Positions 1-34,988 of a stretch of 64,000 bases of DNA are shown piece by piece. A program made the position numbers and the translations under genes. Within the stretch, counting starts at the first letter, position 1; every line of letters begins with the position of its first letter. This DNA comes from a virus. Lineage: Duplodnaviria > Heunggongvirae > Uroviricota > Caudoviricetes > Crassvirales. The DNA is taken from the IMG/VR virus record IMGVR_UViG_3300034082_001032; one strand, written 5' to 3'. The notes below the pieces were generated by a model. It had not been told where the DNA came from, made no database searches, and saw only the letters and a list, made by a program, of their open reading frames with translations.

Positions 1-317
1 ACATGAAACTTCTCTCTTCCTCTTTCTCCTTCATATGTTAAATATATCCAACACACATCTTCTGTGAGACTGTTGAGATAGTCTCGAGCTTCTTTATATG
101 GATATACAAGAGATAGAGTGATGTTATTACCATGACTATGTAGGTAGTGAGCAATATCACTAGCTCTGTTCAAGTTTCTAATACGTCCTTCTCTGCTATA
201 GTCCTTGTTAGCAAATAACTCTCTGAGCTTGTCCCCATCTATATTTTTATAAGAAGGAAACTGGTTTGCTATTGTTGACTTACCACTATGTGGTTGTCCA
301 AAGAGTGCAATAATCAT
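1..317 (-). CDS. Adenylyl-sulfate (APS) kinase-like protein, N-terminal part; 3' end runs off the window
   Basis: Manual translation from ATG at 317..315 gives MIIALFGQPHSGKSTIANQF... (P-loop GxxxxGKST). It is followed by 'IDGDKLRELFANKDYSREGRIRNLNRASDIAHYL', which resembles the CysC 'LDGDNVRHGL..DRxENIRRxxEVA' region. The ATG overlaps the TGA of the upstream ORF (ATGA), suggesting translational coupling. Confidence 0.55.
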   Translation of the reverse strand, partial: MIIALFGQPHSGKSTIANQFPSYKNIDGDKLRELFANKDYSREGRIRNLNRASDIAHYLHSHGNNITLSLVYPYKEARDYLNSLTEDVCWIYLTYEGERGREKFH

Positions 318-1261
318 ATAGTTTTCAATATGTTATTAATGTCAAACATTTCCTCTATACTGTTGTAAGGACATTCGTGAACAGTTCCTTCAAAGGAATA
401 ATCAAAGATGTAGCTATCTATAAGCTTTGTAGTGCCAGGAGGATCTTTAGCGACAATATTATTGTGCATCTTATATCCAAAGTTGACAGGAGATGTTCCT
501 ACCCATAACACTGTAGAAGAAAGTCCCATTCCTGCTGCAGCATGTTGTAAGAAAGAATCTATTAACACACGTTTTTGAGATGTGGCAAGGATGGAGAACA
601 TTTCAAAGTTGGACATTTGTTGTGTTACATGTTCTACATTAGGAATCAGATTGGTGTTTGGTCTAGTCACCTGTATAATGTGATGAGTGTTACTATAACG
701 CTCAGCAATAGCCACAGCTACTTCATAAGGCATGTCTCTAGTCCAAGCATAAGAGAATGTACTATTAAATGAACCTCCATTAGTTTGTATTACCATTACA
801 GGTTTTTCTCTTTGCCAGTTGTATTGCAACATCTTCTGTACAGCATTGGGATGAAGCTGAGGAAGCTGTTCTTTATAAGAAACATCAAGCAGGTCACACC
901 AGTTGTGTATCAGATGCTTCTTACGCATGATGTGGTCACTTTGGAAATAAGGCTCATGACGAAATACAATAGTGTCCCTATCCTTTATATAATCATCATA
1001 GAAGTAAGAAGTGGAACCCACTCTATACACCCTGTGTATGTTAGGGTTGTTTAGGAATATCTCTGGATAGGATACCACCATAATGAGTTTTCTATCAGCA
1101 TAGCGTTCTTTCACATCCTTTATAAGAGATGTTGCTGCTATGTTCTTTCCTAACCCACCTTCGATGTGCCATACAACATACTTATTACTATCTACAGAAC
1201 GGTCTTCTAACACTGTTAGTTTTTCTTCTGCTTCTGCTTCTGTTTTATATCCTACGTTCAT
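314..1261 (-). CDS. Glycosyltransferase family 9-like (heptosyltransferase fold)
   Basis: 315-aa ORF. N-terminal 'HIEGGLGKNIAATSLIKDVKERY' matches the GT9 'GGIGDxxxxxP' loop. C-terminal 'IDSFLQHAAAGMGLSSTVLWVGTSP' matches the GT9 signature 'DTGxMHLAAAxGxPxVxLFGPT'. Confidence 0.6.
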   Translation of the reverse strand: MNVGYKTEAEAEEKLTVLEDRSVDSNKYVVWHIEGGLGKNIAATSLIKDVKERYADRKLIMVVSYPEIFLNNPNIHRVYRVGSTSYFYDDYIKDRDTIVFRHEPYFQSDHIMRKKHLIHNWCDLLDVSYKEQLPQLHPNAVQKMLQYNWQREKPVMVIQTNGGSFNSTFSYAWTRDMPYEVAVAIAERYSNTHHIIQVTRPNTNLIPNVEHVTQQMSNFEMFSILATSQKRVLIDSFLQHAAAGMGLSSTVLWVGTSPVNFGYKMHNNIVAKDPPGTTKLIDSYIFDYSFEGTVHECPYNSIEEMFDINNILKTI

Positions 1262-1264
1262 TGG

Positions 1265-2086
1265 TTATATTTTATATCCAAAATCATTAAAGAACCATCT
1301 ATAACTGTCCTCTATTATCTTACAAGCATTAGGTCCTAACACTTCACGATAATCATCCTTTACAGGTTTGAGTTCACCACGAATGACATGATCTCCAAAT
1401 ATTCCATACCACTTATCATCTTCTGTGGAGTATTGTTGAATATTTTTGAAGTCATGTTGGAAGAACGGAATCTCTAGATAGTCATAGATGCGCTTTAGTT
1501 GCGCATTAGGATCTATACACAGTTCTTCAAATTTAATAAATAGGATGTGTTGATGTGTACCAGCTACGAGTGTCTGGTATAATCGGTCCAGAGCTGGACC
1601 AATAGGAGGATTGTTGGACCACACCACCATACGCTTATCTGTGGTGGTACCTGTTAGGTTTCCCCAGTTAGCAATGTTTGTGTCCACCAAAGGGTTCTGT
1701 CTATACTTCTTCTCTAGAGAAGAATATATAGCACGGATGTCCCTAATCATGCAAATAATCTTGGGGTTGGGATCAAAGGCATGAAGAAAATCACGCTCCA
1801 TTGCCCAACCCCTAGATTTTTCCATAACATACGGACGTTCTGTTATAGCATTATAGAATCCATAGAGTCCATCTTTCAACATTCCCTTAAACCCTGCTTC
1901 CATGAGTTGTTGATCCTGTGCCTTAAACTCTAATCCGTTAGAGAAATAGTTACGGGCATTTGTGTACATCTCAAAGATGCCAGATGTAGGAGTGGAATGA
2001 ATCTCTGGATTCTGTGCTAGAATGTTTTGAATAAGGGTACTTCCAGCTCTTGGGAGAGAGCTGTTGTAGAATATCTTCTTGACCAT
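1265..2086 (-). CDS. Sulfotransferase (PAPS-dependent, Sulfotransfer_3/Stf0-like)
   Basis: 273-aa ORF. N-terminal 'SSLPRAGSTLIQNIL' matches the 5'-phosphosulfate-binding loop (PRSGST). 'CMIRDIRAIYSSLEKKY' matches the 3'-phosphate-binding RDxR...S motif. It overlaps the next ORF by 8 nt. Confidence 0.65.
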   Translation of the reverse strand: MVKKIFYNSSLPRAGSTLIQNILAQNPEIHSTPTSGIFEMYTNARNYFSNGLEFKAQDQQLMEAGFKGMLKDGLYGFYNAITERPYVMEKSRGWAMERDFLHAFDPNPKIICMIRDIRAIYSSLEKKYRQNPLVDTNIANWGNLTGTTTDKRMVVWSNNPPIGPALDRLYQTLVAGTHQHILFIKFEELCIDPNAQLKRIYDYLEIPFFQHDFKNIQQYSTEDDKWYGIFGDHVIRGELKPVKDDYREVLGPNACKIIEDSYRWFFNDFGYKI

Positions 2087-2111
2087 TATGTTTGTTGGTT
2101 TTAATGTTCAA

Positions 2112-2462
2112 TTAGAATGGATTGAAGTCCTTTGGATTTCCTTCAATAAACTCAACAGCTTCTGTTCCTACTTGCTCACAAATAGTGCCAAGAATTACAG
2201 TGTCATCAATACCCCACTCTTGAATGTAAGGAGCACCCAAGTTGAGGCTACCGCCCAACAGACGTTTGAAGGTTTCCATGTTTCCTTCAGCATCAAATGT
2301 AGCAGTACCATAGATGAGACTAAAGCTCACTTCTTCAGCACCTAAGCGATAAGGAGATGCTACCGCTGTTAGATAGTCAGCTGTTTTAACATCATAGGCA
2401 AAAGGAGATTCCATTTCAGGAATTTCAGCAACGGGATTGATCTTTGCAAAAAGCATTTTCAT
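2112..2462 (-). CDS. Hypothetical protein (116 aa), possibly a small sugar-modifying accessory enzyme
   Basis: Intact ORF with the same orientation and packing as the flanking glycan-modification genes. No motif recognised with confidence. Confidence 0.35.
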   Translation of the reverse strand: MKMLFAKINPVAEIPEMESPFAYDVKTADYLTAVASPYRLGAEEVSFSLIYGTATFDAEGNMETFKRLLGGSLNLGAPYIQEWGIDDTVILGTICEQVGTEAVEFIEGNPKDFNPF

Positions 2463-2468
2463 AGCTAA

Positions 2469-3068
2469 TTATTGTTTTAAGTTTTTAAATAATAAGTCCA
2501 ATTGGAAGATGATGCCGTTAGAACAATGGTAGTCAACAATATCTACAATATAAAACCCAAGGTCTATCATCTTGTTCACCACAGCATCCATGAGAGGTGC
2601 TCCCTGATTGTATTCAAGTAAGGACACCTCCATCATTACAAAGGTAGTATTTTTTATTGTATTCTCACCACCTCTAATTATGTCTAACTCAGAACCTTGT
2701 ACATCTAGTTTAATGAAATCTATAGGAGCTCCATCAAAGTAGTTGCAATCATCTAGGCGCTTTGTAATCACTGTCTGTGTTTTACCCTCTGTGTACCAAT
2801 TGGTGTTCTCCTTATACAAGGAACTTCCTGTACCAATTGGATTTACATCCTCTATATGTAACTCAGCTGTTCCATTTTTATCAGACAGAGCTACAATTTC
2901 GTAGGGCTTACCCAGCAGTCTTAGATAGGGCTCACAGTTTTTGTTAGCCTCTATCATAACTATTTGACACTCAGGGAATTTATAGTAGAGTTCTTTAGTA
3001 AAAGAACCTACATGTGCCCCTATGTCTAAAGCTCTTTTGGGGTCAATGTGTCTAAATAGTTTGTCCAT
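2469..3068 (-). CDS. FkbM-family SAM-dependent methyltransferase
   Basis: 'RALDIGAHVGSFT' (SAM-binding GxGxG-like) and 'IDFIKLDVQGSELDII' are characteristic of FkbM-domain O-methyltransferases (Methyltransf_21). Confidence 0.65.
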   Translation of the reverse strand: MDKLFRHIDPKRALDIGAHVGSFTKELYYKFPECQIVMIEANKNCEPYLRLLGKPYEIVALSDKNGTAELHIEDVNPIGTGSSLYKENTNWYTEGKTQTVITKRLDDCNYFDGAPIDFIKLDVQGSELDIIRGGENTIKNTTFVMMEVSLLEYNQGAPLMDAVVNKMIDLGFYIVDIVDYHCSNGIIFQLDLLFKNLKQ

Positions 3069-3937
3069 TGGTTTATTCTATTGTCCCAGCTCCACTTAGG
3101 AGCATATGTCTTCACTTGTTCTTCAAGGTGCATTCCGTTTCTCACAGCTTCTATTTCTTTCTTAAGAATGGAAGCAAACACCTCAGCATGTTTATCCTTA
3201 TCCATCAGATAGGGATAGATAGTTGCCCATCCTTCTGTAGTTTCAGGCAGTGCTCCTATGTTACTTGTTACCACCCTTAGACCAGCTGACAGAGCTTCTA
3301 TCACAGCTATACAAGAGGTTTCCTCAAATGTACAGGGATAGGCTAAAATGTCAAAGCTGGAAAGTTCCTTCCTCAGCTCCTCGTTAGGAATAGATCCTCT
3401 GTATACAATTCCTTCTGTGTTTAGACAGGCGTTATATAAGTCTGTATATTTAGGATCTTCTGTAGAAGCAAAGTCTTCTCCATATATTTTACAGCTAGAG
3501 AAAACATGTAGTTCACAGTTTTTAAGCTTAAGTATATCCCATGCCTTTAGAAGAACATCAAGTCCTCTGAAGGGTGTGGACGTATAACAAAGCTTCACTA
3601 TATCTCTTTCTCCTGGTTTACGTGGTTCTACACCAACACAAGCGTTCTTTATAACAGAAGTTTTGTATCCAGGAATGTTGAATAGTTTCCTATAATATTC
3701 TGATTGCCAGTGACTTACAAAAACAAACTGATCAATTGCTTCAACGTTCTTAGGATCTGTCAACCATTGTACAGCCTGTTGGTCATAGCTCAACTGGTTC
3801 CAATAGATGGTAGGTTTTTCAAAGTCAGCATCTCCTATGTAGTTGAATATAGACCATTTGTCTTTATATTCTTCAGGCAGTCTTCTCATGAGTTCATTAT
3901 ACATAAGCTCTGTACCGCCCATTGGTTTATCAAACAT
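3026..3937 (-). CDS. Glycosyltransferase, GT-B fold (GT4 / Glycos_transf_1 family)
   Basis: C-terminal 'YPCTFEETSCIAVIEALSAGLRVVTSNIGALPE' is the classic E-x7-E retaining GT4 motif. Confidence 0.7.
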   Translation of the reverse strand: MFDKPMGGTELMYNELMRRLPEEYKDKWSIFNYIGDADFEKPTIYWNQLSYDQQAVQWLTDPKNVEAIDQFVFVSHWQSEYYRKLFNIPGYKTSVIKNACVGVEPRKPGERDIVKLCYTSTPFRGLDVLLKAWDILKLKNCELHVFSSCKIYGEDFASTEDPKYTDLYNACLNTEGIVYRGSIPNEELRKELSSFDILAYPCTFEETSCIAVIEALSAGLRVVTSNIGALPETTEGWATIYPYLMDKDKHAEVFASILKKEIEAVRNGMHLEEQVKTYAPKWSWDNRINQWTNYLDTLTPKEL

Positions 3938-4595
3938 ATCCGTGTTTTGTTATAAAGGTATTAAAATCACCCTTGAATTTCTTTGTTCCTATGTGGTTGA
4001 GTGTAATGGTTGGATCTAACCACACCTTATATCCTAAGGATTTCCACTTGTTACAAAGGATGTAGTCTTCAGATATAAGATCACCATTCTCCACCTTTAT
4101 GTCACACACCATTCTATGCTTTTCACCTTCACTCATATACTCATCACTTATATCCCAAAGCTTCTCCAATGCAAATCTACTTATTTTGAGGAAGCCAGTA
4201 CCTACACCATCCACTTCTATAAGCTTTTCATCCTTAGACTTCTTAAGAGTTTTGTCCATCAACTTCACTGTATACCCCTCATTCTTATCACTCTTTTTTA
4301 CAAGAGCCCCACCTATAAATGGTTCTGGTCTATCCAAAAGCCTGAAAAACCATTCTGGTTCCCATTCAGCATCAGAATCTATAAAGAACAGATCGTCATA
4401 CCCTCCCTCCATAGCAAGTCTAAATAGACTGTTTCTAGCTCTTTGGATGAGACTGTCATAGCTTGTATAGATGGCGTGGACAAATATTTCCTTTTCATAA
4501 GCCAGTTTAACCGTACCCAAGAGCGAGTTTGCAAACCAAACATCTATCCTTCCATCATATGAGGGTGTACCTATGAGCACTCTACGCATAGGCAA
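3930..4595 (-). CDS. GT-A fold glycosyltransferase (DxD type)
   Basis: 'VLIGTPSYDGR' at the N-terminus, a 'FFIDSDAEW' DxD motif and 'EDYILCNKWKSLGYKVWLDP' resemble GT2/GT25-like GT-A enzymes. It overlaps the upstream GT4 start by 8 nt. Confidence 0.5.
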   Translation of the reverse strand: MPMRRVLIGTPSYDGRIDVWFANSLLGTVKLAYEKEIFVHAIYTSYDSLIQRARNSLFRLAMEGGYDDLFFIDSDAEWEPEWFFRLLDRPEPFIGGALVKKSDKNEGYTVKLMDKTLKKSKDEKLIEVDGVGTGFLKISRFALEKLWDISDEYMSEGEKHRMVCDIKVENGDLISEDYILCNKWKSLGYKVWLDPTITLNHIGTKKFKGDFNTFITKHGYV

Positions 4596-4607
4596 ATATA
4601 TGTAGTT

Positions 4608-7600
4608 TTATTTATTTCCACAACTTTTTTCTAGATTTTCCACTCTTCCATCTAGCTCTTGTATAGCTTTGATAATTGGTGCTATGAGTTCTTCATATGT
4701 TACACGATAGGCATCTTTATCTTCATCATGTCCCAGAGCATCAAACTTTACTCCTAGCTCATCTATAGCAGCTTTCACATCCTGAGCTATCACTCCATAA
4801 TGTTCTCTTACACCAGACAGCGTACCATCTTTTGTTCCATACTCAAACCCACACTCCTTAACATAGTTATCACGGTTGTCCCAATTGTAGGTTACAGGCT
4901 TAATCTTCTTAATGAAGTTGAGACCTAAACCATCTGGAAGAGGTTTAATATTTGTCTTATCACGACAGTCTGACACTACAGACCAAGCTGCATATACGCA
5001 GTTGCAAACGTTGTTGTTTGCGTTACCCCATACGGTGTGATTATCTATTGCAGAAGTTGTAGCGTTGTCTCCTATAACAATATTATTATCTGTACCAGCA
5101 TAAAAGTTAGCAGCAGAACTATTACCAATTGCAATATTATACTTACCGTTGCTATTAAATTGCATTGCAAACTGCCCAACGGCAATATTTGCTCTACCTA
5201 CATCATTAGAATTTAAAGCTCTATCTCCAACAGCTGTATTCCAAAGACCAGTAGTGTTGAGATTTAAAGCGCCTTTACCTACTGCAGTATTTCCTGCACC
5301 TGTTGTATTACAGCGTAATGCACAGAATCCCATTGCTGTGTTGCCGTAACCAATAGTGTTACAGGAGAGCGCTAGGTTTCCAGTAGCGGTGTTTTGATAT
5401 CCAGTAGTATTAGCTTTTAATGCGCAAAATCCTACTGCTGTATTATCGGATGCTGTATTTGCTTGTAGAGAATAAAACCCTACAGCAGTATTACCGCCTC
5501 CAGTAACGTTTTGTTGTAGTGATGAATATCCAACAGCAGTGTTATTTATTCCTGTTGTATTAGTAAATAGAGCTGTTCTACCAAATGCAGAGTTTCCTGT
5601 GCCTGATGTGTTTGAATATAATGTTCTGTCACCTACTGCTGTTAAATACCTGCCTGTATTTACTCTTAAAGCGCTTCTACCTATTGCTACGTTATTACAG
5701 CCTGTTGTGTTACATCTAAGAGCTTCAACACCTATAGATATATTATTGACTGCAGTTGTATTTTTTTCTGAAGCAAGTCTACCAATAGCTATATTGAGAG
5801 TTCCTGTAGTGTTACTTGCTAATGCTAAAGAACCAATAGCAGTATTGTCACTTCCTATTGTATTTGCTTCTAATGCACAGACTCCTACTGCTACGTTGTC
5901 TATACCAGTAGTAGTACTTCTTAATGCACAAAAACCAACTGCTGTGTTGTTTGAGGCTGTGTTTGAATAGAGGGCTTGAAGACCTACTGCTGTATTATTA
6001 CTACCTACAGTATTAGAATTTAAGGCATTTACACCTACAGCAGTATTACAAACACCTGTTGTGTTACTAAACAATGCATTAACACCTAATCCTGTGTTTT
6101 GGTTTCCTATTGTATTGCAAACTAATGCTCTACAGCCCAACGCTGTATTGTATGCACCAGTAGTATTACTTCTTAATGAGCAGAAACCTACTGCTGTATT
6201 GTTTGATGCTGTGTTACATCTTAACGAGTCAACACCTATAGCAGTATTAGAAGTACCAACAGTATTAGCAAACAAACTAGCAACACCCACCGCGGTATTA
6301 TTAGCACCTGTGGTATTATAAAGTAATGAGTATCTGTTTATTGCTGTGTTATTACCGCCTGAAGTGTTATTAACTAATGAGCAAAAACCTATAGAGACAT
6401 TTGAACCACCAATTGTATTAGATAATAAAGCATTACCTCCTATTGCTACATTACTAGTACCAGTAGTATTACTTCTTAATGCACAGAACCCGACTGCTGT
6501 GTTGTTTGATGCTAAATTACATTCAAGAGCTCTTGTTCCAAGAGCAGTATTACACGCTCCAACTAAGTTTTGTGTAAGTGCTTCTCTACCAATTGCTACG
6601 TTGTTAACACCTGTAGTATTTTTATACAGTGCTGTTTGACCCATAGCGGTGTTATTAGCACCTACTGTGTTATTTGCTAATGCTGAATTACCAAAAGCAT
6701 TGTTGTTGTATCCTGTTGTATTATTGAAAAGAGCTCCATGACCAAACGCTGCATTATTTATACCTACTGTATTAGAAAATAATGCTTGTAAACCAACAGC
6801 CGTGTTTGAAGTACCTGTTGTATTACTCCTTAAAGCTTGTAAACCAACTGCTGTGTTATTTGATGCTGTATTGCAAAGTAATGCACTTCTGCCTAAGGCT
6901 GTATTGTTAAGACCTACAGTATTAGAATATAAAGCATCTACACCTACAGCTGTATTAGCGGCACCTGTCGTATTATTTTTAAGTGAGCTTACACCAATAG
7001 TAACGTTATATGCACCTGTTGTATTACTTCTTAATGCACAAAAACCGACTGCTGTATTGGCTGATGCTGTGTTGCAATAAAGTGATTGATGGCCAATAGC
7101 AGTATTGTTAACACCTGCTGTATTGCATAATAACGATTGTAAACCTATAGCAGTATTGCATGTTCCTGACAAGTTATATTGTAATGCACCTCCGCCCACT
7201 GCAATATTTCCTACACCTATTGTATTTTTTGTTAATGCTCTTACACCCACTGCTGTATTACTAATACCAGTAGTGTTACATGCTAAAGTAAAATATCCGA
7301 CAGCAGTGTTATATGATGCTGTATTTTTATACAACGAACCCTGACCAATAGCTGTATTACGATTTCCTATTAAATTATTCTGTAAAGCATTAGCACCGAT
7401 TGCTATATTTCGTTCACCAGATGTGTTTGAAGATAATGCATCGGTACCTATAGCTGTATTAACTGTACCAGTTGTATTACTTCTTAATGCACAGAACCCG
7501 ACTGCTGTGTTGTTTGAGGCTGTGTTGGCAAACAAAGCGTTTCTACCAAGAGCAGTGTTATTAGTACCTACAACGTTAGTGTATAAGGCAAGTGTACCGA

Positions 7601-10600
7601 CTGCTGTGTTATTAGTTCCAGTCGTATTATTTTCTAGTGCACTTGTTCCTATCGCAACGTTAGCACAGGCAGTAGTGTTTTTTCTTAATGCATAAGGACC
7701 TAAAGCTATGTTACTGTTTCCTGTGGTATTACTTCTTAACGCACAGAATCCAACTGCTGTATTGTTTGATGCTGTGTTTTGACGAAGGGCAAAGAAACCC
7801 ATCGCTACATTACTGTTTCCTGTTGTATTATACCTAAGTGCTGAAGATCCAACTACAGTGTTGTAACATCCTGTTGTGTTACAGCAGGAAGAAAGTGTAC
7901 CTATAGACGTGTTATCAAGTCCTCTTGTGTTACATTGTAGTGTTCTGTACCCAACAGCTGTATTACTATATCCTGTGGTATTACTAAGAAGTGTATTAAA
8001 TCCAACTGCTGTATTAAATACTCCTGTTGTATTATTTCTTAATGCGCTAGCACCTACTGCTGTGTTGGATGATGCTGTATTTAAACAAAGTGCATGTACA
8101 CCTAATGCTATGTTATTACCTCCTACAGTATTACATCGTAGTGCGTTTACTCCTACTGCTAAGTTACAATTACCGGTTGTATTACCTATAAGTGCATAAA
8201 ATCCTAATGCTGAGTTGTAGGTGCCTATAGTATTAGAAGCTAGAGAACTTCTTCCTATAGCTGTGTTATAAGTACCAGTAGTATTGCTTCTTAATGCACA
8301 GAATCCGACTGCTGTGTTGTTTGAGGCTGTGTTACAGTATAAAGCATTAATTCCAATAGCTAAATTGCAATTACCAGTTGTATTACAAAACAAAGCGTTT
8401 AATCCAACTGCTATATTATTTGTACCTACTGTATTATACCTTAATGTACTGGCACCTATTGCGGTATTCGTTGCACCTGATGTATTATTAAGTAAAGATA
8501 AACCTCCTATTGCTACGTTACTAGCACCTACTGTATTGTTTGATAAAGTTAGCCTACCTACTGCTGTGTTGTCTGTACCAGTAGTATTATTTCTTAACGC
8601 ACTAAATCCTAATGCTGTGTTATTTGATGCTGTGTTTAAGTTTAATGCTTCTCTACCAACAGCTGTATTGCTGTTTCCAACAGTATTACATATTAAAGCA
8701 CCTTGACCAACAGCAGTATTTGAAATACCGGTTGTATTTTTATAAAGAGATTGATGACCTACAGCTGTATTACCTGTTCCTGAAGTATTGGCTCTTAGGG
8801 CTTGGGAACCCATAGCTGTGTTAAAAGTACCTATATTGTTATTTCTTAAAGCATATAATCCAACAGCTGTGTTTTGTACTCCTGTAGAATTGTATTGTAG
8901 AGCATTAGTTCCTACTATTGTGTTAGAAGCAATACTTCCACCACCCTTACCAACATCAACACCACTGCCACCAACTAGGTTGACACATAGGTCACCGTTA
9001 GTCTTTTGACATGTTTTACTATCGCCAATTGTTGTAGATGATGTAAACTTCACTATATATTCTGGCGTACCAGCTACAGCTACAGATGTACCACTTGAAC
9101 CTGCTGTTCCTGAAGAGCCACTAGTTCCTGTTGTTCCAGAGGTTCCAGATGTGGCACTGCTTCCGCTTGTTCCACTAGTTCCTCCTGAGCCATTAGTGCC
9201 TGAAGTGCCTGCAGTTCCGCTAGTTCCACTGCTTCCTGCTGTTCCTGAGCTACCAGCAGTGCCAGAAGATCCAGAAGTTCCTGATGTACCACCAGTACCG
9301 TTTGTTCCACTTGTACCACTAGATCCAGACAATCCGCTAGTTCCAGAAGTACCTGTTGTACCGCTTGTACCTGTAGTGCCAGATGTACCACTAGTTCCTG
9401 TAGTGCCGCTAGAGCCTGATGTACCAGATGTACCTGGACTACCTGCTGTACCAGCTGTACCAGATGATCCTGAGCTACCAGAGCTTCCACTAGATCCACT
9501 TGATCCAGCACTACCGTTTGTACCAGATGTGCCAGATGTACCAGAGGTGGCAGAAGATCCACTAGAACCGCTTGATCCTGATGTGGCTGATGTTCCACTT
9601 GAACCAGATGTACCTGTGGTACCACTTGTACCAGATGTTCCACCTGTTCCATTGGTGCCACTTGTACCTGAGCTTCCAGAGGTTGCACTTGTACCGCTTG
9701 TACCAGAAGAACCTGCTGTTCCAGATGTGCCTGTAGTTCCACTGGTTCCGCTTGTTCCTCCAGACCCATTAGTTCCTGAAGTGCCTGAAGAGCCAGAGGT
9801 ACCACTAGTTCCTGTGGTGCCCGAAGTACCCGTAGTTCCAGATGTTCCACTAGTAGCGCTGGTTCCAGATGTACCAGGACTGCCAGATGTACCAGATGTA
9901 CCTGTAGTTCCTGAAGACCCACTTGATCCTGAGGTACCTGTAGTGCCCGAAGTGCCTGCTGTTGCAGACGTACCACTTGTACCTGATGATCCACTTGAAC
10001 CATCTCCCCCTGTAGCACCATCAAGGTTTACTTGCCATGTGCTATATGTACCAGACCCTGTAAGCCTAAATACAATAAAGCTCAATGAGCCAGTTGCTGG
10101 GTTATAAGATGTAACCTCAGCTTCTACGTGATTGTTAGCATCGTAGGCAACAATAATAGACTGAGCAATTGTATATGCTAATCCTGTTCCCACTGTAATA
10201 GTTCCCGTTGTACCTACAGCTCCTAATGTATATGTTGATGTTGATGTTGTGGCAAATCTATCACCACTCAAACCTGAAGATCCAGATGTACCTGTTGTTC
10301 CTGCTGTACCAGAAGTACCTGATGTAGCACTTGTTCCACTAGTTCCGCTAGTTGCACTTGTTCCTGAAGTGCCCCCAGATCCATTTGTGCCACTAGTACC
10401 ACTCGTTCCTGATGTGCCTGTGGTACCACTAGTTCCTCCAGTACCATTAGTTCCACTTGTTCCGCTGGTTGCAGATGTTCCAGAAGTTCCACTAGACCCT
10501 GACGTTCCACTAGTACCAGTTGTTCCTGATGTTCCAGCGGTACCAGAAGTCCCTGTAGTTCCACTACTTCCTGATGTTCCACTAGTTCCACTACTACCAG

Positions 10601-12380
10601 CTGAACCATTTGTTCCAGATGTACCACTCGTACCAGCAGTTCCTGATGTACCAGTAGTTCCACTTGAGCCAGAAGATCCTGAGCTTCCAGATGAACCACT
10701 TGTAGCACTCGTACCACTTGTACCAGATGTTCCTGCAGAACCGTTAGTTCCAGAAGATCCTGATGAACCTGAAGTGGCAGATGTACCTGATGTACCGCTT
10801 GTTCCTCCTGAACCATCCGTACCAGAGATGCCAGATGTTCCTGATGTTCCACTAGTTGCAGAGGTTCCTGAGGTACCTGTAGTACCACTAGTTCCTGATG
10901 TTGCACTAGTTCCATCTGTTCCTGATGAGCCAGATGTACCGCTTGTACCACCACTACCATCAGTACCAGATGAACCACTTGTTCCACTGGTGCCACTAGA
11001 CCCACTAGTTCCTGTTGTACCACTAGTTCCACTAGTTGCTGACGTACCTGATGTACCACTTGTACCCCCTGTTCCATCTGTAGCACTAGTTCCGCTTGTA
11101 CCACTTGTTGCAGAAGTGCCAGAGGTTCCAGACGTACCTGTACTACCAGAGGTTCCAGAACTACCAGAGGTTCCTGTCGTTCCAGAAGTACCCGTGGTAC
11201 CAGAGGTTCCTGTAGTGCCTGAGGTTCCTGATGTTCCTGATGTAGCACTTGTTCCACTACTACCACTAGTTCCTGTAGTGCCACTTGTACCACTAGATCC
11301 AGAGGTAGATGAGCTTCCTGAACTTCCTGATGTACCTGTTGTACCAGAGCTACCTGAGGTTCCACTTGTTCCAGAACTTCCTGCAGTTCCAGATGTTGTA
11401 ACTGGAAAAATTGCTAGAGCACCATCTCCTCTAATATATTCAGATGTATTACCTGTTGCAACAATATTAATTGTTCCAAAGCTTGTAATTGGAGGAGTGG
11501 TTACAGAAAATGCAGGAGGAACTGCTGCCTGTACACTTGTAACTGTACCAACATTAAAAGTTCTATCTGCAGTGAGATCTCTAGTGACACCATTGATTGT
11601 AATAGTTCTAGAGTCTGGAACTGGTGTATATCCCAATAATCCAATAATGTCTCCAGCTGTCAAGGGAGCAGCGGAGGTTACCAATCCTTTTGCGTTTACA
11701 GCAAACTTTAGAGGTGTATTTGATCCATACACATTACTGTTAACTGTAGCAAGGGTGGTTGTCAGAGGAACTCCTGTGTTACCAACACCAGAAACATCTC
11801 CTTGGAGAATGATGATGTCTGATGGGAGATTGATTGGTACTGGTGTAATGTTTGTTACTAATCCTTTACCGTTCACTGTTACAACAGGAACAGTTGTAGA
11901 AGATCCAAATGTTCCTGGAGAAACATTCACAGTGGCTAGTGTAAATGGAACACTGCCTGGACCAGATGCTGTACCATCACCAGTGAGGTTGGTGATGTAA
12001 TTACCAGCAGGCTGGTAAGATGTTGAATCTAAAGATCCATCTCCTTTAACAAAATCATTAGAAGTTCCACCTGTTGTAATGAAAGCAGCAGTTTCAATAG
12101 ACCCTGTAAGGGTAAATGTATATCCTGCACTATTGATTACTGTATCTTCTATAAGAGCACCCCCTAGTTTTACTGGTTGACCAGGAGAAAGTTGAATGAT
12201 TCCGTTGTCAAATATATACCCAATAGTAGCATCTTGAAACTTAGCATCGATCTTTTCGAGTGCAGTTTGCAAGTTGTCATTAGTATTAATGCCTGTATAT
12301 ATCAAATTCTCACCTTCGTAAAATACGCAAGTGGCATTTAATATAACAGGACAAGGAGTTGCTTCACAACCAACAATCAT
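4608..12380 (-). CDS. Giant mosaic tail fibre (2590 aa): N-terminal Cys-motif anchor, collagen-like G-S/T triplet blocks, ~70 x 17-aa YadA-head-like repeats, C-terminal peptidase-S74 intramolecular chaperone domain
   Basis: N-terminus 'CEATPCPVILNATCVFYEGENLIY..NDNLQTALEKID' is shared with four other ORFs. There are long runs of GTSGTSGSSGTTG triplets. The repeat unit is 'NTAVGxxALxxNTxGxx' (Hep_Hag-like). The C-terminus 'WSVVSDCRDKTNIKPL...VTYNWD...GVIAQDV' matches the S74 endosialidase-type chaperone 'SDxRxK'. Confidence 0.85.
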   Translation of the reverse strand: MIVGCEATPCPVILNATCVFYEGENLIYTGINTNDNLQTALEKIDAKFQDATIGYIFDNGIIQLSPGQPVKLGGALIEDTVINSAGYTFTLTGSIETAAFITTGGTSNDFVKGDGSLDSTSYQPAGNYITNLTGDGTASGPGSVPFTLATVNVSPGTFGSSTTVPVVTVNGKGLVTNITPVPINLPSDIIILQGDVSGVGNTGVPLTTTLATVNSNVYGSNTPLKFAVNAKGLVTSAAPLTAGDIIGLLGYTPVPDSRTITINGVTRDLTADRTFNVGTVTSVQAAVPPAFSVTTPPITSFGTINIVATGNTSEYIRGDGALAIFPVTTSGTAGSSGTSGTSGSSGTTGTSGSSGSSSTSGSSGTSGTTGTSGSSGTSATSGTSGTSGTTGTSGTTGTSGTTGTSGSSGTSGSTGTSGTSGTSATSGTSGTSATDGTGGTSGTSGTSATSGTSGTTGTSGSSGTSGTSGSSGTDGSGGTSGTSGSSGTDGTSATSGTSGTTGTSGTSATSGTSGTSGISGTDGSGGTSGTSGTSATSGSSGSSGTNGSAGTSGTSGTSATSGSSGSSGSSGSSGTTGTSGTAGTSGTSGTNGSAGSSGTSGTSGSSGTTGTSGTAGTSGTTGTSGTSGSSGTSGTSATSGTSGTNGTGGTSGTTGTSGTSGTSGTNGSGGTSGTSATSGTSGTSATSGTSGTAGTTGTSGSSGLSGDRFATTSTSTYTLGAVGTTGTITVGTGLAYTIAQSIIVAYDANNHVEAEVTSYNPATGSLSFIVFRLTGSGTYSTWQVNLDGATGGDGSSGSSGTSGTSATAGTSGTTGTSGSSGSSGTTGTSGTSGSPGTSGTSATSGTSGTTGTSGTTGTSGTSGSSGTSGTNGSGGTSGTSGTTGTSGTAGSSGTSGTSATSGSSGTSGTNGTGGTSGTSGTTGTSGSSGTSATSGSSGSSGSSATSGTSGTSGTNGSAGSSGSSGSSGSSGSSGTAGTAGSPGTSGTSGSSGTTGTSGTSGTTGTSGTTGTSGTSGLSGSSGTSGTNGTGGTSGTSGSSGTAGSSGTAGSSGTSGTAGTSGTNGSGGTSGTSGSSATSGTSGTTGTSGSSGTAGSSGTSVAVAGTPEYIVKFTSSTTIGDSKTCQKTNGDLCVNLVGGSGVDVGKGGGSIASNTIVGTNALQYNSTGVQNTAVGLYALRNNNIGTFNTAMGSQALRANTSGTGNTAVGHQSLYKNTTGISNTAVGQGALICNTVGNSNTAVGREALNLNTASNNTALGFSALRNNTTGTDNTAVGRLTLSNNTVGASNVAIGGLSLLNNTSGATNTAIGASTLRYNTVGTNNIAVGLNALFCNTTGNCNLAIGINALYCNTASNNTAVGFCALRSNTTGTYNTAIGRSSLASNTIGTYNSALGFYALIGNTTGNCNLAVGVNALRCNTVGGNNIALGVHALCLNTASSNTAVGASALRNNTTGVFNTAVGFNTLLSNTTGYSNTAVGYRTLQCNTRGLDNTSIGTLSSCCNTTGCYNTVVGSSALRYNTTGNSNVAMGFFALRQNTASNNTAVGFCALRSNTTGNSNIALGPYALRKNTTACANVAIGTSALENNTTGTNNTAVGTLALYTNVVGTNNTALGRNALFANTASNNTAVGFCALRSNTTGTVNTAIGTDALSSNTSGERNIAIGANALQNNLIGNRNTAIGQGSLYKNTASYNTAVGYFTLACNTTGISNTAVGVRALTKNTIGVGNIAVGGGALQYNLSGTCNTAIGLQSLLCNTAGVNNTAIGHQSLYCNTASANTAVGFCALRSNTTGAYNVTIGVSSLKNNTTGAANTAVGVDALYSNTVGLNNTALGRSALLCNTASNNTAVGLQALRSNTTGTSNTAVGLQALFSNTVGINNAAFGHGALFNNTTGYNNNAFGNSALANNTVGANNTAMGQTALYKNTTGVNNVAIGREALTQNLVGACNTALGTRALECNLASNNTAVGFCALRSNTTGTSNVAIGGNALLSNTIGGSNVSIGFCSLVNNTSGGNNTAINRYSLLYNTTGANNTAVGVASLFANTVGTSNTAIGVDSLRCNTASNNTAVGFCSLRSNTTGAYNTALGCRALVCNTIGNQNTGLGVNALFSNTTGVCNTAVGVNALNSNTVGSNNTAVGLQALYSNTASNNTAVGFCALRSTTTGIDNVAVGVCALEANTIGSDNTAIGSLALASNTTGTLNIAIGRLASEKNTTAVNNISIGVEALRCNTTGCNNVAIGRSALRVNTGRYLTAVGDRTLYSNTSGTGNSAFGRTALFTNTTGINNTAVGYSSLQQNVTGGGNTAVGFYSLQANTASDNTAVGFCALKANTTGYQNTATGNLALSCNTIGYGNTAMGFCALRCNTTGAGNTAVGKGALNLNTTGLWNTAVGDRALNSNDVGRANIAVGQFAMQFNSNGKYNIAIGNSSAANFYAGTDNNIVIGDNATTSAIDNHTVWGNANNNVCNCVYAAWSVVSDCRDKTNIKPLPDGLGLNFIKKIKPVTYNWDNRDNYVKECGFEYGTKDGTLSGVREHYGVIAQDVKAAIDELGVKFDALGHDEDKDAYRVTYEELIAPIIKAIQELDGRVENLEKSCGNK
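5210..8870 (-). repeat. About 70 tandem 51-nt (17-codon) repeats encoding 'NTAVGxxALxxNTxGxx' beta-roll units inside the fibre gene
   Basis: The periodicity is visible in the protein. The off-frame plus-strand ORFs (5149..8815) translate to recurring 'PTAVLxxPVVL' shadows. Confidence 0.8.
9080..11400 (-). repeat. Two blocks of collagen-like Gly-X-Y triplet repeats (X,Y mostly Ser/Thr) in the fibre gene; highly repetitive DNA
   Basis: Protein GTS/GSS/GTT triplets for about 600 residues. The shadow ORFs 9151..10107(+), 10249..12000(+), 9080..10024(-) and 10268..11365(-) are all low-complexity VPLVP/QVQLV frames. Confidence 0.8.
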
Positions 12381-12935: not shown

Positions 12936-15900
12936 TTATAAGGTAACTGGTCTAGCTTGTGACTGTGCTCTGATACCAAGATCTTTAGCCAACTCTGGAT
13001 AGAACATAGGAAGCATACCAGCAGCTTGGTTACTTATAGGGAATGATTTCATTAGGTATTTAATCACCTTGGTTTTCTCTACAAGTTCCTCATCACCTAC
13101 AGCCATACCAAACATTTCAGTATTAAAGTTCATTATGAGTTTCTTGAAGTTATTCAAATAACTAATTGATGGGAATATACCAGAAGAAACAAGACTAGTT
13201 AAACTAGTAGGATCATAGAAATAAGCCAACTCGTCCTTAATCTTATCAGCAGCTCTGAGCATAAACTTGTATTGATTCTTAACCGCTGCATCTTCATCAT
13301 CGTCTGGGGCATTTGCTTTCAGTCCAATATAGAGAGCATATATAGTTAACATGAACATCAGATCCACCATTTGTCCTTTGATGTTCTTTCTAGTAAGGTC
13401 AATAAACTGAGACTGAGTCATTTCCAAATCCTTACCTGTTTCAGCTTTATACTCTTCTCTCTTCTTTTCATAAAGGTTTCTCATGAATTCCACACCTTTA
13501 TCATTAGCCTGCACAGAGTTGATTAGGTTGTTAATTGATCCAACCACGTCTTCAGATATCACCCTGAAAACATTTCTCATTCTTCCCCATTCATAAGCAT
13601 CAGACGCAGAATTGTATTTAAGATTACCAAGACGTACATCCACCAATCTTGGAATCCAGTTTTTAAATAACATAAAAGATTTTCCATATATGTTCATGTT
13701 TATGTTTCTTACATCATCCTCTGTAAGGTTACCAAGAGCATCTTTACTAACTTGTTGTACCTTTCTTCTAAGTTCAATTACAGATTGTGATTTTCTATCT
13801 ACTCCAGGTATAACAAGTTCTCCATTCTTTATTTCTCCAAGTTTAAGAACACTCTTAGTTTCCAATAGTTCCTTAACATCTTTCTCAAACTTGTTAGCTC
13901 TATCCTTTCTTTCTTCAGCACTACCAGAATACATATCCTTGTATTCAGGTTGTTCTCTGAGATATTCTCTAACGTTAATCACCCTGTCACCATCTACAAT
14001 TGTATTTCTAAGGAATGTAAAGAAGTTAGCAGACTGAACAAACATGTCAGAGTTTCTCATAAGCACCATCATGAACTCTTGAATGTTCTCTTGACTTAAC
14101 TTACTGAGAGACAACTTTTTAGCAAGCTCTCTATTATAACTATCTGTAAAAGGAAGGAAGTATTCAATTGAACGAATCATTTTGTCCCTATCCTCACCAC
14201 GAGTCATTTTATTTCCTGCCATCCAAAGTTCTGTAGATAAATAGTCTTGTCTGGTGAAATACGTTCCAGCATTAATCATAGATTGGAAGTTACCACCTAA
14301 CAGGTTTGAAAGAGCAGATAGAGGATTAAGACCTAACGCGTTGAGTTGGAATGTGTTATTCAATTGGTCAATCACCTTGTTGATACTAATCTGTCTTCCA
14401 GATAAGTTCTCTGGGAATATCTTAATTCCAAGTTTCTTATTAGCTCTTTCTCCAAAATCACTCAGGCTACCAAGAAGTTGATCAAAGCTTTCACTTTGTA
14501 TAAATTTCTGTCCATATATAATGGACTTCATCATATCCTCAACAAGCTTAGTGTTCTCGTTATTATTTGCTGTGTATTCAAGTTTACCATCTTTATATTT
14601 GGTTTTACCAAATGTAGATGTGGCAATAGCTTTCTTGTTCCTTTCTGTATTCACAAGAGCCCTAGCCTGAGCTTCAATATCACTTACATATTTATATTTA
14701 ATAGCCATTTCATTATACAAAGCCATGTTCCTGAACAGGTCTGTGCTTAGCTCTCCTTCAATCTCTCTAGTAAAATATGTAGGAATTGTATCAATTAGTC
14801 TACCTGTAAGAGGATCTGTTTTACCAAATCCTACATCTCCTTCATCAATAGAAACACTTCTTAAAAATTGTTCACCAAGACTAATTTTTCCACCAAAGAT
14901 GATTTTCTCCATTAGTCCTTTTCTAACAAATGGTAAGAATATCCTAGCTTCAGCCTTGCTGATATATCCTATCTCTTGATAGTATTCATTTCTTTCTTTG
15001 ATATAATTGTAGAAATCAAATGCAGCCTTGTTCTCAGGTTTCGTAAGTTCTTTCCATTCAGCAGATTCCCATTTATCTCTCTTTGGAAACTTCTTTGTAA
15101 GATCGTACAAAAACCAACCAGGTGATTCAGATGTAGATGTGTTATAAAGATTCTGAACTTGTGCCTTCTCTCTAGAAATCTCTCTATTGACTTCATCTTC
15201 AGAACCAACTCTTGCCTTATTATCAATTCTCTCAAGTTCTTCTGCAAGCTTTTCTTGAAGGAACTTGTTGTATTCAACCCCATCAATATTGTCTCTAACC
15301 CAACTAAAGTCTTTATCAGTTGATTTAGACTTTAGTTCTTTATAAAAATCACGTTGAAACTCATCAATAAGTTCGTTCTTATCTTTCTTCTTAAGAATAT
15401 CAAAGTAGTTCTTATTGTTTAATCCTTTAGCCTGAGCCCATTTATCGTAGGATTCTTTGAGGGCAGCTAGCTTTTTAGTTTCATCTATAGTGTCCATAGA
15501 TGCAAACCCAAATGCTCTGTTTGCTTTTTTGTACAAAGTTTCAAGAGCTTTCAATTGTAAACTTGATGTAGATACAAACCATTTAGTTATACCCTTGATA
15601 ACTTTCTCTGGAGAGAGGTAGTTATCAACTCCTTCAGATCCAGCAACAAAATCATTTACAAATTCTCCTGATATATCATCAAGATTTGAATCAAGTTCTT
15701 GTGCTAATTCTGTCACTTCACGAAGCTCTTCTCTAAGTGCTCCATCTTCTTCAGATAGTTCTCCCTGGAACAAAAACTTCAAGTCTGTGTTTAATGTAAT
15801 GTAAGCAATCAATGAGTTCTTAGCTGTTTCCAATTCCTCATAGAACTTACTAATATCTTTCTGTTCAAAATCTTTTACATCTTTACCAGCCCAGTTTTCC

Positions 15901-34700: not shown

Positions 34701-34988
34701 AGCAGGAGCATTAAAGTTAAATGGCTGCATGAAAGAAGGTGTTTGCAAATTTGCTTTCAAAGGCATTCCTGCATATTGATATTGTGGAACATCTACACCA
34801 TCCTGAGCCTGTGGAGGATTAGCAAAATCAGTAAGCTGGATCAATTGCTTCTTAACCATAGCTGATCCCATTTTAGCTTTTTTAAATGCACCACCATGTT
34901 TAGCCATAAACTCAGCCTCTGTACCATACTTAGCGTACAACTCAGCTTCAGATTTAACACCAGCAATTTTTAAAATGTCTTTCTTCAT
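31797..34988 (-). CDS. Large virion protein (1063 aa) with a Gly-rich flexible segment, possibly a tape-measure or ejection protein
   Basis: 'GGGLGSYIGGGKGEASGASKIGGGLGQLAGTALGGPLGGVIGSAAGSLLGGVIGG' low-complexity glycine zipper. The ORF is otherwise intact. Confidence 0.5.
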   Translation of the reverse strand: MKKDILKIAGVKSEAELYAKYGTEAEFMAKHGGAFKKAKMGSAMVKKQLIQLTDFANPPQAQDGVDVPQYQYAGMPLKANLQTPSFMQPFNFNAPAYQQYQPMGLPDSRSEDIVNSSVYDITGMDRYYGKPLTPKSPKPFVSKVPPKENKLTKDNIFDAGLDIVQGIVQSKEDRENMLRAKQFSAMSDVALQAASVRDDIKNRYLRPEDMMFDPNQLSRSYGTGYDVLQATAEDGTKIGGNPTEIQNMYNPGDIYSNLGYEPLDESSKVKQFQGGGAIFANWKQDLTSFGADSAGDLGGGLGSYIGGGKGEASGASKIGGGLGQLAGTALGGPLGGVIGSAAGSLLGGVIGGAQQKKIDDMLAQGQANAANASFQQLQQGRFSSFMEDGGEVGLKYLSHDWQPQVIATFGEHKLKDLLRPDNQSDIMRSGGHLKDYSYTPPSARAMSTERPNMQMGGNLKPLWGGDIEPVSYNPYMPGDGMTYEAFGDYHKDGGVGMDYAGSKVEVQPKEPIFETEDGGSIGPDGQPEKSATVLGGMRIDKTFAPELGEEISKGLTFQKYGQNLSKLEVKQNKIMDKGVSLVDEINGDNPFDLLKLNSGKALMAGANMKLKGIADKKITAANIQQSIHEEAEKYGYKDVDKFNEDLFKGKFKGSKMAKFGAKMETAQGGLRLYGDPVEQSTFGPGGGYQAPLPPATVSKGVPGKRNAVEVTDISQVTDNDLRELYTKAEKYKGKGANKAVADFQRAFHAKYPEVATQILSEYDVTNLGKTKGLGKSNLESNVDQYFGPRTERYRAALENIGRKPMLEKPTRLNSELPPAIVPPKTISPKTPTMQTSTPPLKGPGVLDVAYSLLEPYTRRGYKVTPDLSSEMFALASNQLDPVQAQTFKPLLETPQTVSYQDILNANQADFNALQRRVGYNPAALSELSSKKYAANAAAKAQEFRENQGLAMGAYNRNRSLLNDSTLKNLAILDTQYQRQSQARSNTKAQAQAALNSISDKIAKSKLESMTMNVYQNMFPQFTFDSSGRAIKTGAPTRFNIGQVAKKGAKVNRNGSIVKAIKNL

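Follow-up and report, generated by a model that had tools for sequence, protein, structure and literature searches.

The cytoplasmic O-heptosyltransferases Aah and TibC modify AIDA-I and TibA, whose beta-helical repeats they heptosylate on serine. Glycan-modifying genes also lie beside the tailspike or fibre gene in the gtrABC/oac seroconverting cassettes, whose products are membrane proteins of temperate phages acting on lipid-linked or periplasmic O-antigen. To our knowledge, phage-encoded glycosylation of virions is known from few systems and sulfation from none. In mycobacteriophages, virion proteins are modified by soluble glycosyltransferases and methyltransferases encoded near the structural genes (Freeman et al. 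2023, as cited in PMC12619734). Here we describe a locus in a 64,000-nt stretch of DNA from a virus of the Crassvirales (IMG/VR record IMGVR_UViG_3300034082_001032, hereafter the window), in which genes for three glycosyltransferases (GT), a methyltransferase, a sulfotransferase and a kinase that would supply 3′-phosphoadenosine 5′-phosphosulfate (PAPS) from adenosine 5′-phosphosulfate (APS) follow a giant tail fibre gene. Positions 1–4595 are best explained as most of a conserved island of late genes in a distant crAss-like phage. With slightly better than even confidence, we propose that this island decorates the repeat fibre with a methylated, sulfated glycan; the functional steps beyond enzyme family are those that we infer.

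All seven open reading frames (ORFs) of 1–4595 lie on the minus strand, directly past the stop of a 2590-aa fibre ORF. The fibre, its parts and the seven ORFs are as follows.

4608..12380, minus strand: tail fibre, 2590 aa, the proposed acceptor (Collagen, 17-aa repeats, Peptidase_S74)
about 9156–11390, minus strand: collagen-like Gly-X-Y runs of the fibre (Pfam Collagen, 3e-70)
about 5088–8873, minus strand: 17-aa repeats of the fibre, xxNTAVGxxALxxNTTG, about 73 copies (repeat periodicity)
about 4752–4973, minus strand: C-terminal Peptidase_S74 chaperone of the fibre (Pfam, 1.7e-14)
3930..4595, minus strand: predicted GT-A-fold glycosyltransferase, 221 aa (weak Pfam match, DXD motif, AlphaFold2 (AF2) fold match)
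3026..3937, minus strand: GT4 (GT-B) glycosyltransferase, 303 aa (Pfam, PHROG, E-x7-E motif)
2469..3068, minus strand: FkbM-family S-adenosylmethionine (SAM)-dependent methyltransferase, 199 aa (Pfam and NCBIfam)
2112..2462, minus strand: acidic conserved protein unk116, 116 aa, pI 4.1 (positional conservation)
1265..2086, minus strand: PAPS-dependent sulfotransferase, 273 aa (Pfam, PHROG, PAPS-binding motifs)
314..1261, minus strand: predicted GT9-fold (GT-B) glycosyltransferase, 315 aa (AF2 model and Foldseek; unannotated by Pfam), hereafter GT9-like
1..317, minus strand: APS-kinase-like protein, first 105 residues of 148 (ATGA overlap of its start with the end of the GT9-like gene, 314–317)

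An earlier note, made from the letters of the window, had described seven co-directional, tightly packed genes after the fibre, with a 12-nt gap between the fibre stop (4608) and the next start (4595) and an ATGA overlap at 314–317. The ORF map agreed with it in count and coordinates, and both junction details were present. Along the minus strand, the further spacings were −8 nt (GT-A/GT4), −43 nt (GT4/FkbM), +6 nt (FkbM/unk116), +25 nt (unk116/sulfotransferase), +3 nt (sulfotransferase/GT9-like) and −4 nt (GT9-like/kinase). The GT-A gene probably starts at an ATG that lies two codons after the TTG, which gives the 219 aa of public gene calls. A terminator-like site or hairpin was sought in the interval between fibre and cluster and was not found. 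The GC content of 1–4600 (0.37–0.39) was similar to that of the remainder of the window. All the island enzymes lacked transmembrane segments and were predicted to be soluble, the sole transmembrane segment being that of a 75-aa DUF2061 protein beyond the window edge.

The enzyme calls of the earlier note were upheld for six proteins (GT-A, GT4, FkbM, sulfotransferase, GT9 fold and short-form APS kinase) by profile or fold searches. The GT4 protein matched Glycos_transf_1 (PF00534) at 2.7e-11 (43.7 bits against a threshold of 26.4), Glyco_trans_1_4 at 7.8e-12 and the glycosyltransferase family phrog_2170 at 2.9e-33, and an E-x7-E motif (EETSCIAVIE) was read in its sequence. The methyltransferase matched Methyltransf_21 (PF05050) at 2.4e-21 (77 bits against 22.7) and TIGR01444 (fkbM_fam) at 8.5e-20 (71.7 bits against a cut-off of 37.7). 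Matches of the sulfotransferase were to Sulfotransfer_3 (PF13469, 2.9e-18, 67.4 bits against 27), Sulfotransfer_1 (PF00685, 1.7e-12, 47.7 bits against 22) and phrog_27463 (3.3e-39), and its 5′-PSB (PRAGSTL) and 3′-PB (IRDIRAIYSS) motifs aligned with their counterparts in TPST1. The protein unk116 occupied the same position in related loci L008–L019 and diverged faster than the enzymes (31–38% identity between subgroups); no match to it was obtained in Pfam, PHROG, NCBIfam or the PDB, profile search included.

The GT-A and GT9-fold calls were made by fold comparison because the family profiles retrieved no glycosyltransferase from the PDB sequences. For the GT-A protein, the Pfam match to Glycos_transf_2 (PF00535) was weak and below threshold (E 0.024, 15 bits against 23.3), and a DXD motif (FFIDSD) was invariant. 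Its AF2 model was of moderate quality (pLDDT 72.6), and the top Foldseek matches were GT-A glycosyltransferases, including the collagen galactosyltransferase COLGALT1 (3.8e-7), LH3, GlfT2 and the PBCV-1 capsid glycosyltransferase A64R (7.5e-4). The 315-aa GT9-like protein had no match in Pfam or NCBIfam and none in the PDB, even with the family profile; its family has 2614 members, of which 120 were listed, none with a Pfam domain. Its AF2 model (pLDDT 79.9, pTM 0.80) was compared with the PDB by Foldseek, and 29 of the 31 top matches were GT9 enzymes (e.g. 3tov, 1.8e-9; TibC, 9e-8; WaaF, 1e-7; WaaC, 1e-6), the other two being chains of a photosystem I-NDH supercomplex. On this model the protein is predicted to have a GT9 fold outside the GT9 (PF01075) sequence profile. 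It contains an invariant stretch, IDSxLQHAAAxMGLxSTVLWxGTSP, which we take to resemble the GT9 donor-binding motif.

Public contigs extend the island leftwards past the window edge, with the complete kinase gene, a nucleotidyltransferase gene and the DUF2061 gene, followed by a large gene on the opposite strand. The genes beyond the kinase were located as follows.

L001:11360–11746: HIGH-motif nucleotidyltransferase, 128 aa (GRWQPWHEGH ... ISATKIRE; NMNAT-like, below all family cut-offs)
L001:11743–11970 (also L027:9034–9261): DUF2061 membrane protein, 75 aa
L001:11933–15352, minus strand of L001, convergent: 1139-aa protein (SAM methyltransferase / GT4 / TibC-like)

The 1139-aa protein begins with a SAM methyltransferase, continues with a GT4 domain and ends in an O-heptosyltransferase domain of the TibC/Aah type. 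The C-terminus matched TIGR04414 (autotransporter strand-loop-strand O-heptosyltransferase) at 1.8e-80 (270.7 bits against an equivalog cut-off of 200) and aligned with TibC (PDB 4rap) at 8e-50. The cysteines matching the TibC CxxC...C...C cluster were identical, and the aligned motif C.GCW...WCP.HK.TDRQFEC was conserved; RfaG was also among the sequence matches of the protein. The equivalog pass and the TibC alignment point, at the level of sequence, to protein glycosylation specifically; we know of no action of the TibC/Aah (TIGR04414) family on targets other than proteins. Genes for a flippase, a polymerase or an initiating lipid-carrier transferase were not found in the island. Residues ~200–600 of the 1139-aa protein, between the methyltransferase and GT4 domains, had no family match and contained a DXD-like motif (YVDADS); this part may be a fourth catalytic (GT-A/GT8-like) domain.

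The fibre consists of an N-terminal domain, the collagen-like Gly-X-Y region, the 17-aa repeats and Peptidase_S74. In the 17-aa repeats, 58 anchor motifs were found, with Thr conserved at positions 4, 15 and 16. Directly upstream of the cluster there was an ORF with NTAxG repeats in every related locus that extends as far as the fibre gene, the divergent L022 and L023 among them. The repeat region had no match among PDB sequences, and Pfam gave no Hep_Hag or YadA repeat there; its repeat pattern suggests a beta-roll fold. In L021, a 1437-aa protein of 14-aa SHAEG repeats adjoins the genes for a TibC-like protein, the sulfotransferase and CysC, and in L055 the module is flanked by an ISGGYCN-repeat protein and a protein with repeats of period 25. 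Repeat-rich fibre proteins of beta-roll or beta-helix type, belonging to different repeat families, thus flanked the module in four architectures. What is conserved is the association of a GT9-type enzyme, a sulfotransferase, a PAPS module and a repeat fibre of the beta-roll type.

The acceptor had been sought by the earlier note in Thr/Ser "linkers" of the fibre. These are in fact collagen-like repeats (164 Gly-X-Y triplets, X being mostly T/S and Y mostly S/T), and among the related loci examined they were confined to the window and L001 fibres. They were rejected as a conserved acceptor, and the conserved partner is the 17-aa repeat. The window and L001 fibres had about 164–182 Gly-X-Y triplets and the L002 fibre (L002:3–6269) almost none in its last 2088 aa; between L002 and the window the glycosyltransferases were 99–100% identical and the fibre C-terminus 89.5%. 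With the fibres of L008–L010 also compared, fibres were found to differ among phages whose island enzymes are identical or nearly so, which suggests modular exchange in the fibre. Over window positions 9000–12000 the GC content rose to 0.44–0.50 (~0.35 elsewhere), coinciding with the Gly-X-Y coding repeats, and long spurious ORFs lay on the opposite strand of this region (e.g. 10249–12000, plus strand).

At least 17 examined contigs of JGI, ENA and NCBI assemblies carried the exact GT9-fold protein, all with the identical junction of fibre and cluster (the index lists this protein in 70 blocks). A scan of IMG/VR with the sulfotransferase gave 17 loci at 51–100% identity. In loci at 68–91% sulfotransferase identity the gene order was fibre, GT-A, GT4, FkbM, unk116, sulfotransferase, GT9-like, APS kinase, nucleotidyltransferase and DUF2061, recurrence being counted whole or up to the contig end; one locus had no detectable FkbM gene. 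L022 and L023 (52–54% identity) carried a reduced module directly after the fibre, in the order sulfotransferase, APS kinase, nucleotidyltransferase, DUF2061 and GT9-like. In ten more distant IMG/VR relatives the fibre C-terminus had diverged to 53–63% identity and was still immediately upstream. Each related locus had at least one GT9-type enzyme beside the sulfotransferase (the GT9-like protein or, in L021, a stand-alone TibC-like protein). The junction at 4595..4608, for which the earlier note had wanted a chimera excluded, is therefore genuine, being shared by independent assemblies and distant relatives. Megablast of 1–4700 against 50,697 phage records gave no match. The island proteins were abundant in metagenomes, with 2,600 to 7,800 clusters at 90% identity per individual protein. 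Contigs of this group reach 108–116 kb, and the whole genome is put at about 110 kb. Lists of their homologues were dominated by close relatives; the fusions described below came from a search of cluster representatives and from a GTDB scan.

The phage itself was placed by its structural block, in which TerL, portal and major capsid protein genes are followed by giant ORFs. The portal matched crAss001 gp20 (E 7e-35), and TerL was 26–30% identical to those of crAss-like phages, as the earlier assignment to crAss-related phages would have it, and 40.8% identical to that of Leptolyngbya phage Lbo-JY46. The major capsid protein matched Lbo-JY46 only and had no match in the PDB. By TerL and major capsid protein, the closest isolate was thus this phage of a freshwater cyanobacterium, ahead of crAss-like phages from seawater and the human gut. 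The phage appears to be a distant crAss relative, not a gut crAssphage, and the suggestion that its fibres aid mucus adherence in the gut found no support. Bins with related modules were mostly Bacteroidota (Lutibacter, Crocinitomicaceae, Flavobacteriaceae, Saprospiraceae and Chitinophagaceae) and Ignavibacteria. No tRNA was found as a hint to the host, and in a non-exhaustive search no integrase or lysogeny gene was seen in the 64-kb window and 10 kb downstream.

Very large ORFs occupy the minus strand at 12936–17603 (1555 aa), 17604–29123 (3839 aa), 29127–31709 (860 aa), 31797–34988 (1063 aa) and 37877–42574 (1565 aa). A PHROGs scan of the 1555-, 860- and 1063-aa ORFs gave no match; the giant ORFs may be cargo or virion RNA polymerase of the crAss type and tail proteins. 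Downstream of the island, L001:16694–17446 encodes a PAS-domain protein of 250 aa that ends in a hydrophobic tail, and three or four small ORFs occupy this site in sister contigs (L002:16076–17255). The PAS gene of L001 is followed by a GH19-like lysin gene (L001:17450–18049) and then an HNH/NUMOD4 endonuclease gene.

The kinase was said in the earlier note to run past the window edge, and its full length of 148 aa was read from L001. It matched Pfam APS_kinase (PF01583) at 1.3e-9 (38.7 bits, and 37.1 in a second scan, against a gathering score of 21.1), and all 14 of its best PDB sequence matches were APS kinases (best 2yvu, 1.4e-8). The motifs retained were the P-loop (GQPHSGKST), DGD (IDGDKLR) and the R..N APS-binding motif (YSREGRIRNLNR). 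In every related phage locus the kinase was within a few genes of the sulfotransferase. In relative L021 a canonical full-length CysC of 226 aa fills the slot of the short kinase, beside the sulfotransferase, which favours the dedicated PAPS supply envisaged earlier; short and canonical forms were both found fused to the same nucleotidyltransferase domain. We read the protein as a putative short-form APS kinase. Among the genes called over 10 kb leftwards from the window edge there was no canonical ATP sulfurylase (Sat/CysDN), and none was recognised in the scanned cluster proteins (most window ORFs right of the fibre lay outside that scan). The leftward extension advised by the earlier note thus led to no canonical enzyme and to the 128-aa HIGH-motif nucleotidyltransferase instead.

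Taken together, the following sequence of events is proposed. To begin with, an enzyme of GT9 type (either the TibC-like domain or the 315-aa GT9-fold protein, or both) would add the first sugar, late in infection, to Ser/Thr of the fibre repeat loops, a step that would parallel the action of Aah/TibC on AIDA-I/TibA in the cytoplasm. The glycan would be extended by the GT4 and GT-A enzymes, O-methylated by the FkbM enzyme and sulfated by the sulfotransferase, for which the phage kinase would make PAPS locally, either from host APS or, possibly, from APS formed by the phage nucleotidyltransferase. The receptor-binding fibre would in this way acquire a methylated glycan coat of negative charge, which may play a part in shielding, solubility, adhesion or host range.

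Fibre glycosylation is the best reading because a domain of the TibC/Aah type lies beside the island and a fibre of beta-roll repeats always flanks the module. The earlier note had already placed the glycan on the phage's own virion; this part of its proposal gained from the adjacent domain and from the repeat fibres of four arrangements, whereas the target itself, virion or host, is drawn from gene context. That dependence on context counts against the reading, and so do several other points. Temperate-phage genes that remodel O-antigen also tend to adjoin tailspike genes, so synteny alone is ambiguous. Many relatives retain the other island genes but have no TibC-like gene (L010–L020), and the GT9-fold protein had no detectable sequence similarity to TibC (against the TibC-like domain, nothing significant by BLASTP and an hhalign probability of 1.3%). 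A TibC-type step would presumably depend on ADP-heptose from the host. The kinase scored 34.4 with the NCBIfam equivalog TIGR00455, far below the cut-off of 138.7; a 16-aa lid segment (the RDPKGLYKKAR region) was deleted, with an invariant RGRE instead, and ISP was changed to VYP in the window clade with loss of the serine (VSP in L019, L022 and L023). We keep its activity as APS kinase conditional because of the lost lid segment and serine and the score below the equivalog cut-off. The best solved relatives of the sulfotransferase were protein-tyrosine sulfotransferases, and the sulfate may not go onto sugar. Finally, cellular cassettes of kinase–nucleotidyltransferase and sulfotransferase genes serve exported polysaccharides, and the phage copy might act on a polysaccharide of the host. 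A plausible though clearly less probable alternative is that the island remodels the host envelope during infection, acting on the lipopolysaccharide (LPS; core or O-antigen), the capsule or one of the host's glycoproteins; this could block superinfection or the sticking of progeny to debris. The seroconversion genes near tailspike genes in temperate phages and the many relatives without a TibC-like gene speak for it, as do the kinase–nucleotidyltransferase and sulfotransferase relatives in an exopolysaccharide locus with exporters and flippases on a Fidelibacterota chromosome (L045), an Acidobacteriota locus (L026) with an ABC exporter and sulfotransferase–GT fusions, and the LPS-core action of classical GT9 and GT4 enzymes (fold matches to WaaC and WaaF, and the RfaG match of the 1139-aa neighbour). 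However, no lysogeny genes were seen in the stretch searched, the island has no membrane-embedded transferase, flippase or polymerase and one transmembrane protein only (DUF2061), the TibC/Aah family is known solely as protein glycosyltransferases, and the link to repeat fibres was kept across four architectures.

Direct sulfation of tyrosines in a phage or host protein, as by TPST or RaxST, with the glycosyltransferases acting independently, is quite improbable in our judgement. The hints to the acceptor are weak and conflicting: the best matches among solved structures were tyrosylprotein sulfotransferases 1 and 2 (E 3e-4 to 2e-2), with both PAPS-binding motifs aligned, but this similarity was weak and largely limited to those motifs, the NCBIfam match to the carbohydrate sulfotransferase NoeE (1.2e-6) was at least equally good, and a GT9-type glycosyltransferase always accompanied the sulfotransferase, even in the minimal module. 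Alternatively, the kinase, together with the nucleotidyltransferase, could boost assimilatory sulfate reduction of the host for cysteine and be unrelated to the glycosyltransferases. Both cysC and cysH have been recorded as viral auxiliary genes in metagenomic surveys, and a fused kinase–nucleotidyltransferase of phage Salvo is located among early genes with no annotated sulfotransferase, yet the island kinase always lies close to a PAPS-dependent sulfotransferase in a late glycan cluster, and no PAPS or APS reductase was found in the phage island, which leaves this explanation very improbable. The chance that a bacterial LPS or capsule locus was misjoined to a phage contig is practically negligible: no point in support of a chimera was found, the GC content of 1–4600 matches the window, and the identical junction in JGI, ENA and NCBI assemblies and in the ten distant relatives refutes it. 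DNA glycosylation was considered and rejected as well; FkbM enzymes, sulfotransferases and protein O-heptosyltransferases are enzyme types unfit for that task.

The nucleotidyltransferase, searched against 1.8 billion cluster representatives, had 1012 relatives. Within the best 150 of these, 28 proved on checking to be fused to an APS kinase domain, in both domain orders and including canonical CysC domains (Pfam up to 1e-68), and one further protein was fused to DUF2061. The catalytic HxGH and the ISxT motif were conserved, together with GRxVGY (GRWQPxHxGH ... GRxVGY ... ISATxIR). In the GTDB scan, an APS kinase gene overlapped, adjoined or was fused to a gene for a nucleotidyltransferase of 110–130 aa in 71 of 80 loci, from Marinimicrobia/Fidelibacterota (contigs up to 970 kb), marine group III archaea, Omnitrophota, Planctomycetota, Saccharibacteria, Acidobacteria and Bacteroidota. 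No Sat signature or CysN was found within 10 kb of these kinase–nucleotidyltransferase loci, and a Sulfotransfer_5 gene was near 23 of them, within exopolysaccharide loci. In four Nitrospiraceae loci a homologue followed, in the same orientation, the genes for sulfite reductase and for an APS reductase of the thioredoxin-dependent type (TIGR02055, 272 bits against 235). Because APS is the common denominator of all these partners, we infer, as the most parsimonious account, that the nucleotidyltransferase makes APS and is a candidate minimal ATP sulfurylase. Two caveats apply. CysDN lay beside the fusion in one Acidobacteriota locus, and the 248-aa gp32 "kinase" of Xylella phage Salvo (L110, NC_042345.1, 15167–15913; phrog_10255), an apparent fusion of the same kind, is encoded among early genes of a cultured siphovirus with no annotated sulfotransferase. 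The full proposal, that the nucleotidyltransferase, a constant companion of the APS kinase, is a hitherto unrecognised minimal ATP sulfurylase, gives the phage a complete sulfate-to-PAPS pathway in about 280 codons feeding a sulfated, methylated fibre, and supplies a missing sulfate-activation step elsewhere, is tentative, and the chances are somewhat against it. If it is true, the same enzyme family would fill a gap in sulfate activation in Marinimicrobia, marine group III archaea, Omnitrophota and others, and likewise in the sulfite reductase/APS reductase operon of Nitrospiraceae. Independently of the fibre model, the pairing with the kinase points to a possible new enzyme that starts sulfate activation in several little-studied phyla. 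The open-access literature yielded nothing relevant on a novel ATP sulfurylase or on DUF2061.

DUF2061 accompanied the kinase–nucleotidyltransferase pair in phage-like contigs (L030, L049, L055 and L076), was fused to the nucleotidyltransferase in P0297, had an extra N-terminal domain of 70 aa in L021 and was not detected in Marinimicrobia loci. The Salvo gp32 gene is near a gene annotated "cysteine dioxygenase".

In the open-access literature we found no paper combining crAss-like phages with a sulfotransferase, in accord with the earlier statement that a phage-borne PAPS supply and sulfotransferase are undescribed for this group. Searches combining phage with sulfotransferase and APS kinase, or with autotransporter heptosyltransferase, likewise gave nothing relevant, and no description was found there of a phage island uniting three glycosyltransferases, a methyltransferase, a sulfotransferase, a PAPS supply and a TibC-type enzyme beside a repeat fibre. 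There is a substantial chance that this would be the first case of virion sulfation. A fibre bearing a sulfated, methylated glycan would offer phages a new route to tune receptor binding, stability and evasion of recognition by hosts or predators, and the island offers a concrete acceptor–enzyme pair (the 17-aa repeat fibre and the TibC-like or GT9-fold enzyme) useful for glyco-engineering.

Compared with described systems, the island shares features with several and matches none throughout. The cultured cyanophages S-SRM01, S-SKS1 and S-SCSM1 have sulfotransferases 25–30% identical to that of the island, and in S-SRM01 the gene adjoins those for a glycosyltransferase and a sugar epimerase; however, these are myoviruses without the fibre-adjacent arrangement, and no homologues of the APS kinase, nucleotidyltransferase, DUF2061 or GT9-like proteins were detected in the fetched loci of S-SKS1 and S-SRM01. 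Unlike the products of gtrABC/oac, the island enzymes are all soluble, and no lysogeny genes were seen. Mycobacteriophages and PBCV-1 (A64R, PDB 2p72) resemble the proposed system in that virus-encoded soluble glycosyltransferases modify the virus's own structural proteins, and A64R was among the GT-A fold matches; their targets are capsid and tail-tube proteins, and they have no sulfotransferase, PAPS module or TibC-type enzyme.

Private sulfate activation encoded with a sulfotransferase for one glycoconjugate has a precedent in rhizobial NodP/NodQ with NodH/NoeE, and the phage sulfotransferase is a weak match to NoeE. The rhizobial system uses CysD and a CysN–CysC fusion, whereas the phage has a short APS kinase, the 128-aa nucleotidyltransferase and DUF2061, without CysDN or Sat. 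In the PAPS synthases (Sat–CysC, PDB 2gks; human PAPSS1), as here, an APS kinase is coupled by fusion or overlap to a domain of the HxGH nucleotidyltransferase superfamily, but the partner of the phage type is NMNAT-like and of about 110 aa, against an ATP sulfurylase of about 400 aa, and lacks QxRNPxHxxH and GRDHAG. The closest parallel to the proposed modification is Aah/AIDA-I and TibC/TibA (TIGR04414, PDB 4rap/4rb4). The domain of the 1139-aa neighbour passes the family cut-off with identical aligned cysteines, the 315-aa protein shares the GT9 fold in its model, and in both cases the enzyme is cytoplasmic and the acceptor, as proposed for the phage, is a long protein of beta-roll or beta-helix repeats whose gene lies nearby. 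The phage system differs in being phage-encoded, in having many relatives without a TibC-like gene, in a proposed acceptor that is a tail fibre, not an autotransporter, and in a repeat period of 17 aa (19 aa in AIDA-I), and its TibC-like domain is fused to a methyltransferase and a GT4 domain and accompanied by enzymes for extension, methylation and sulfation.

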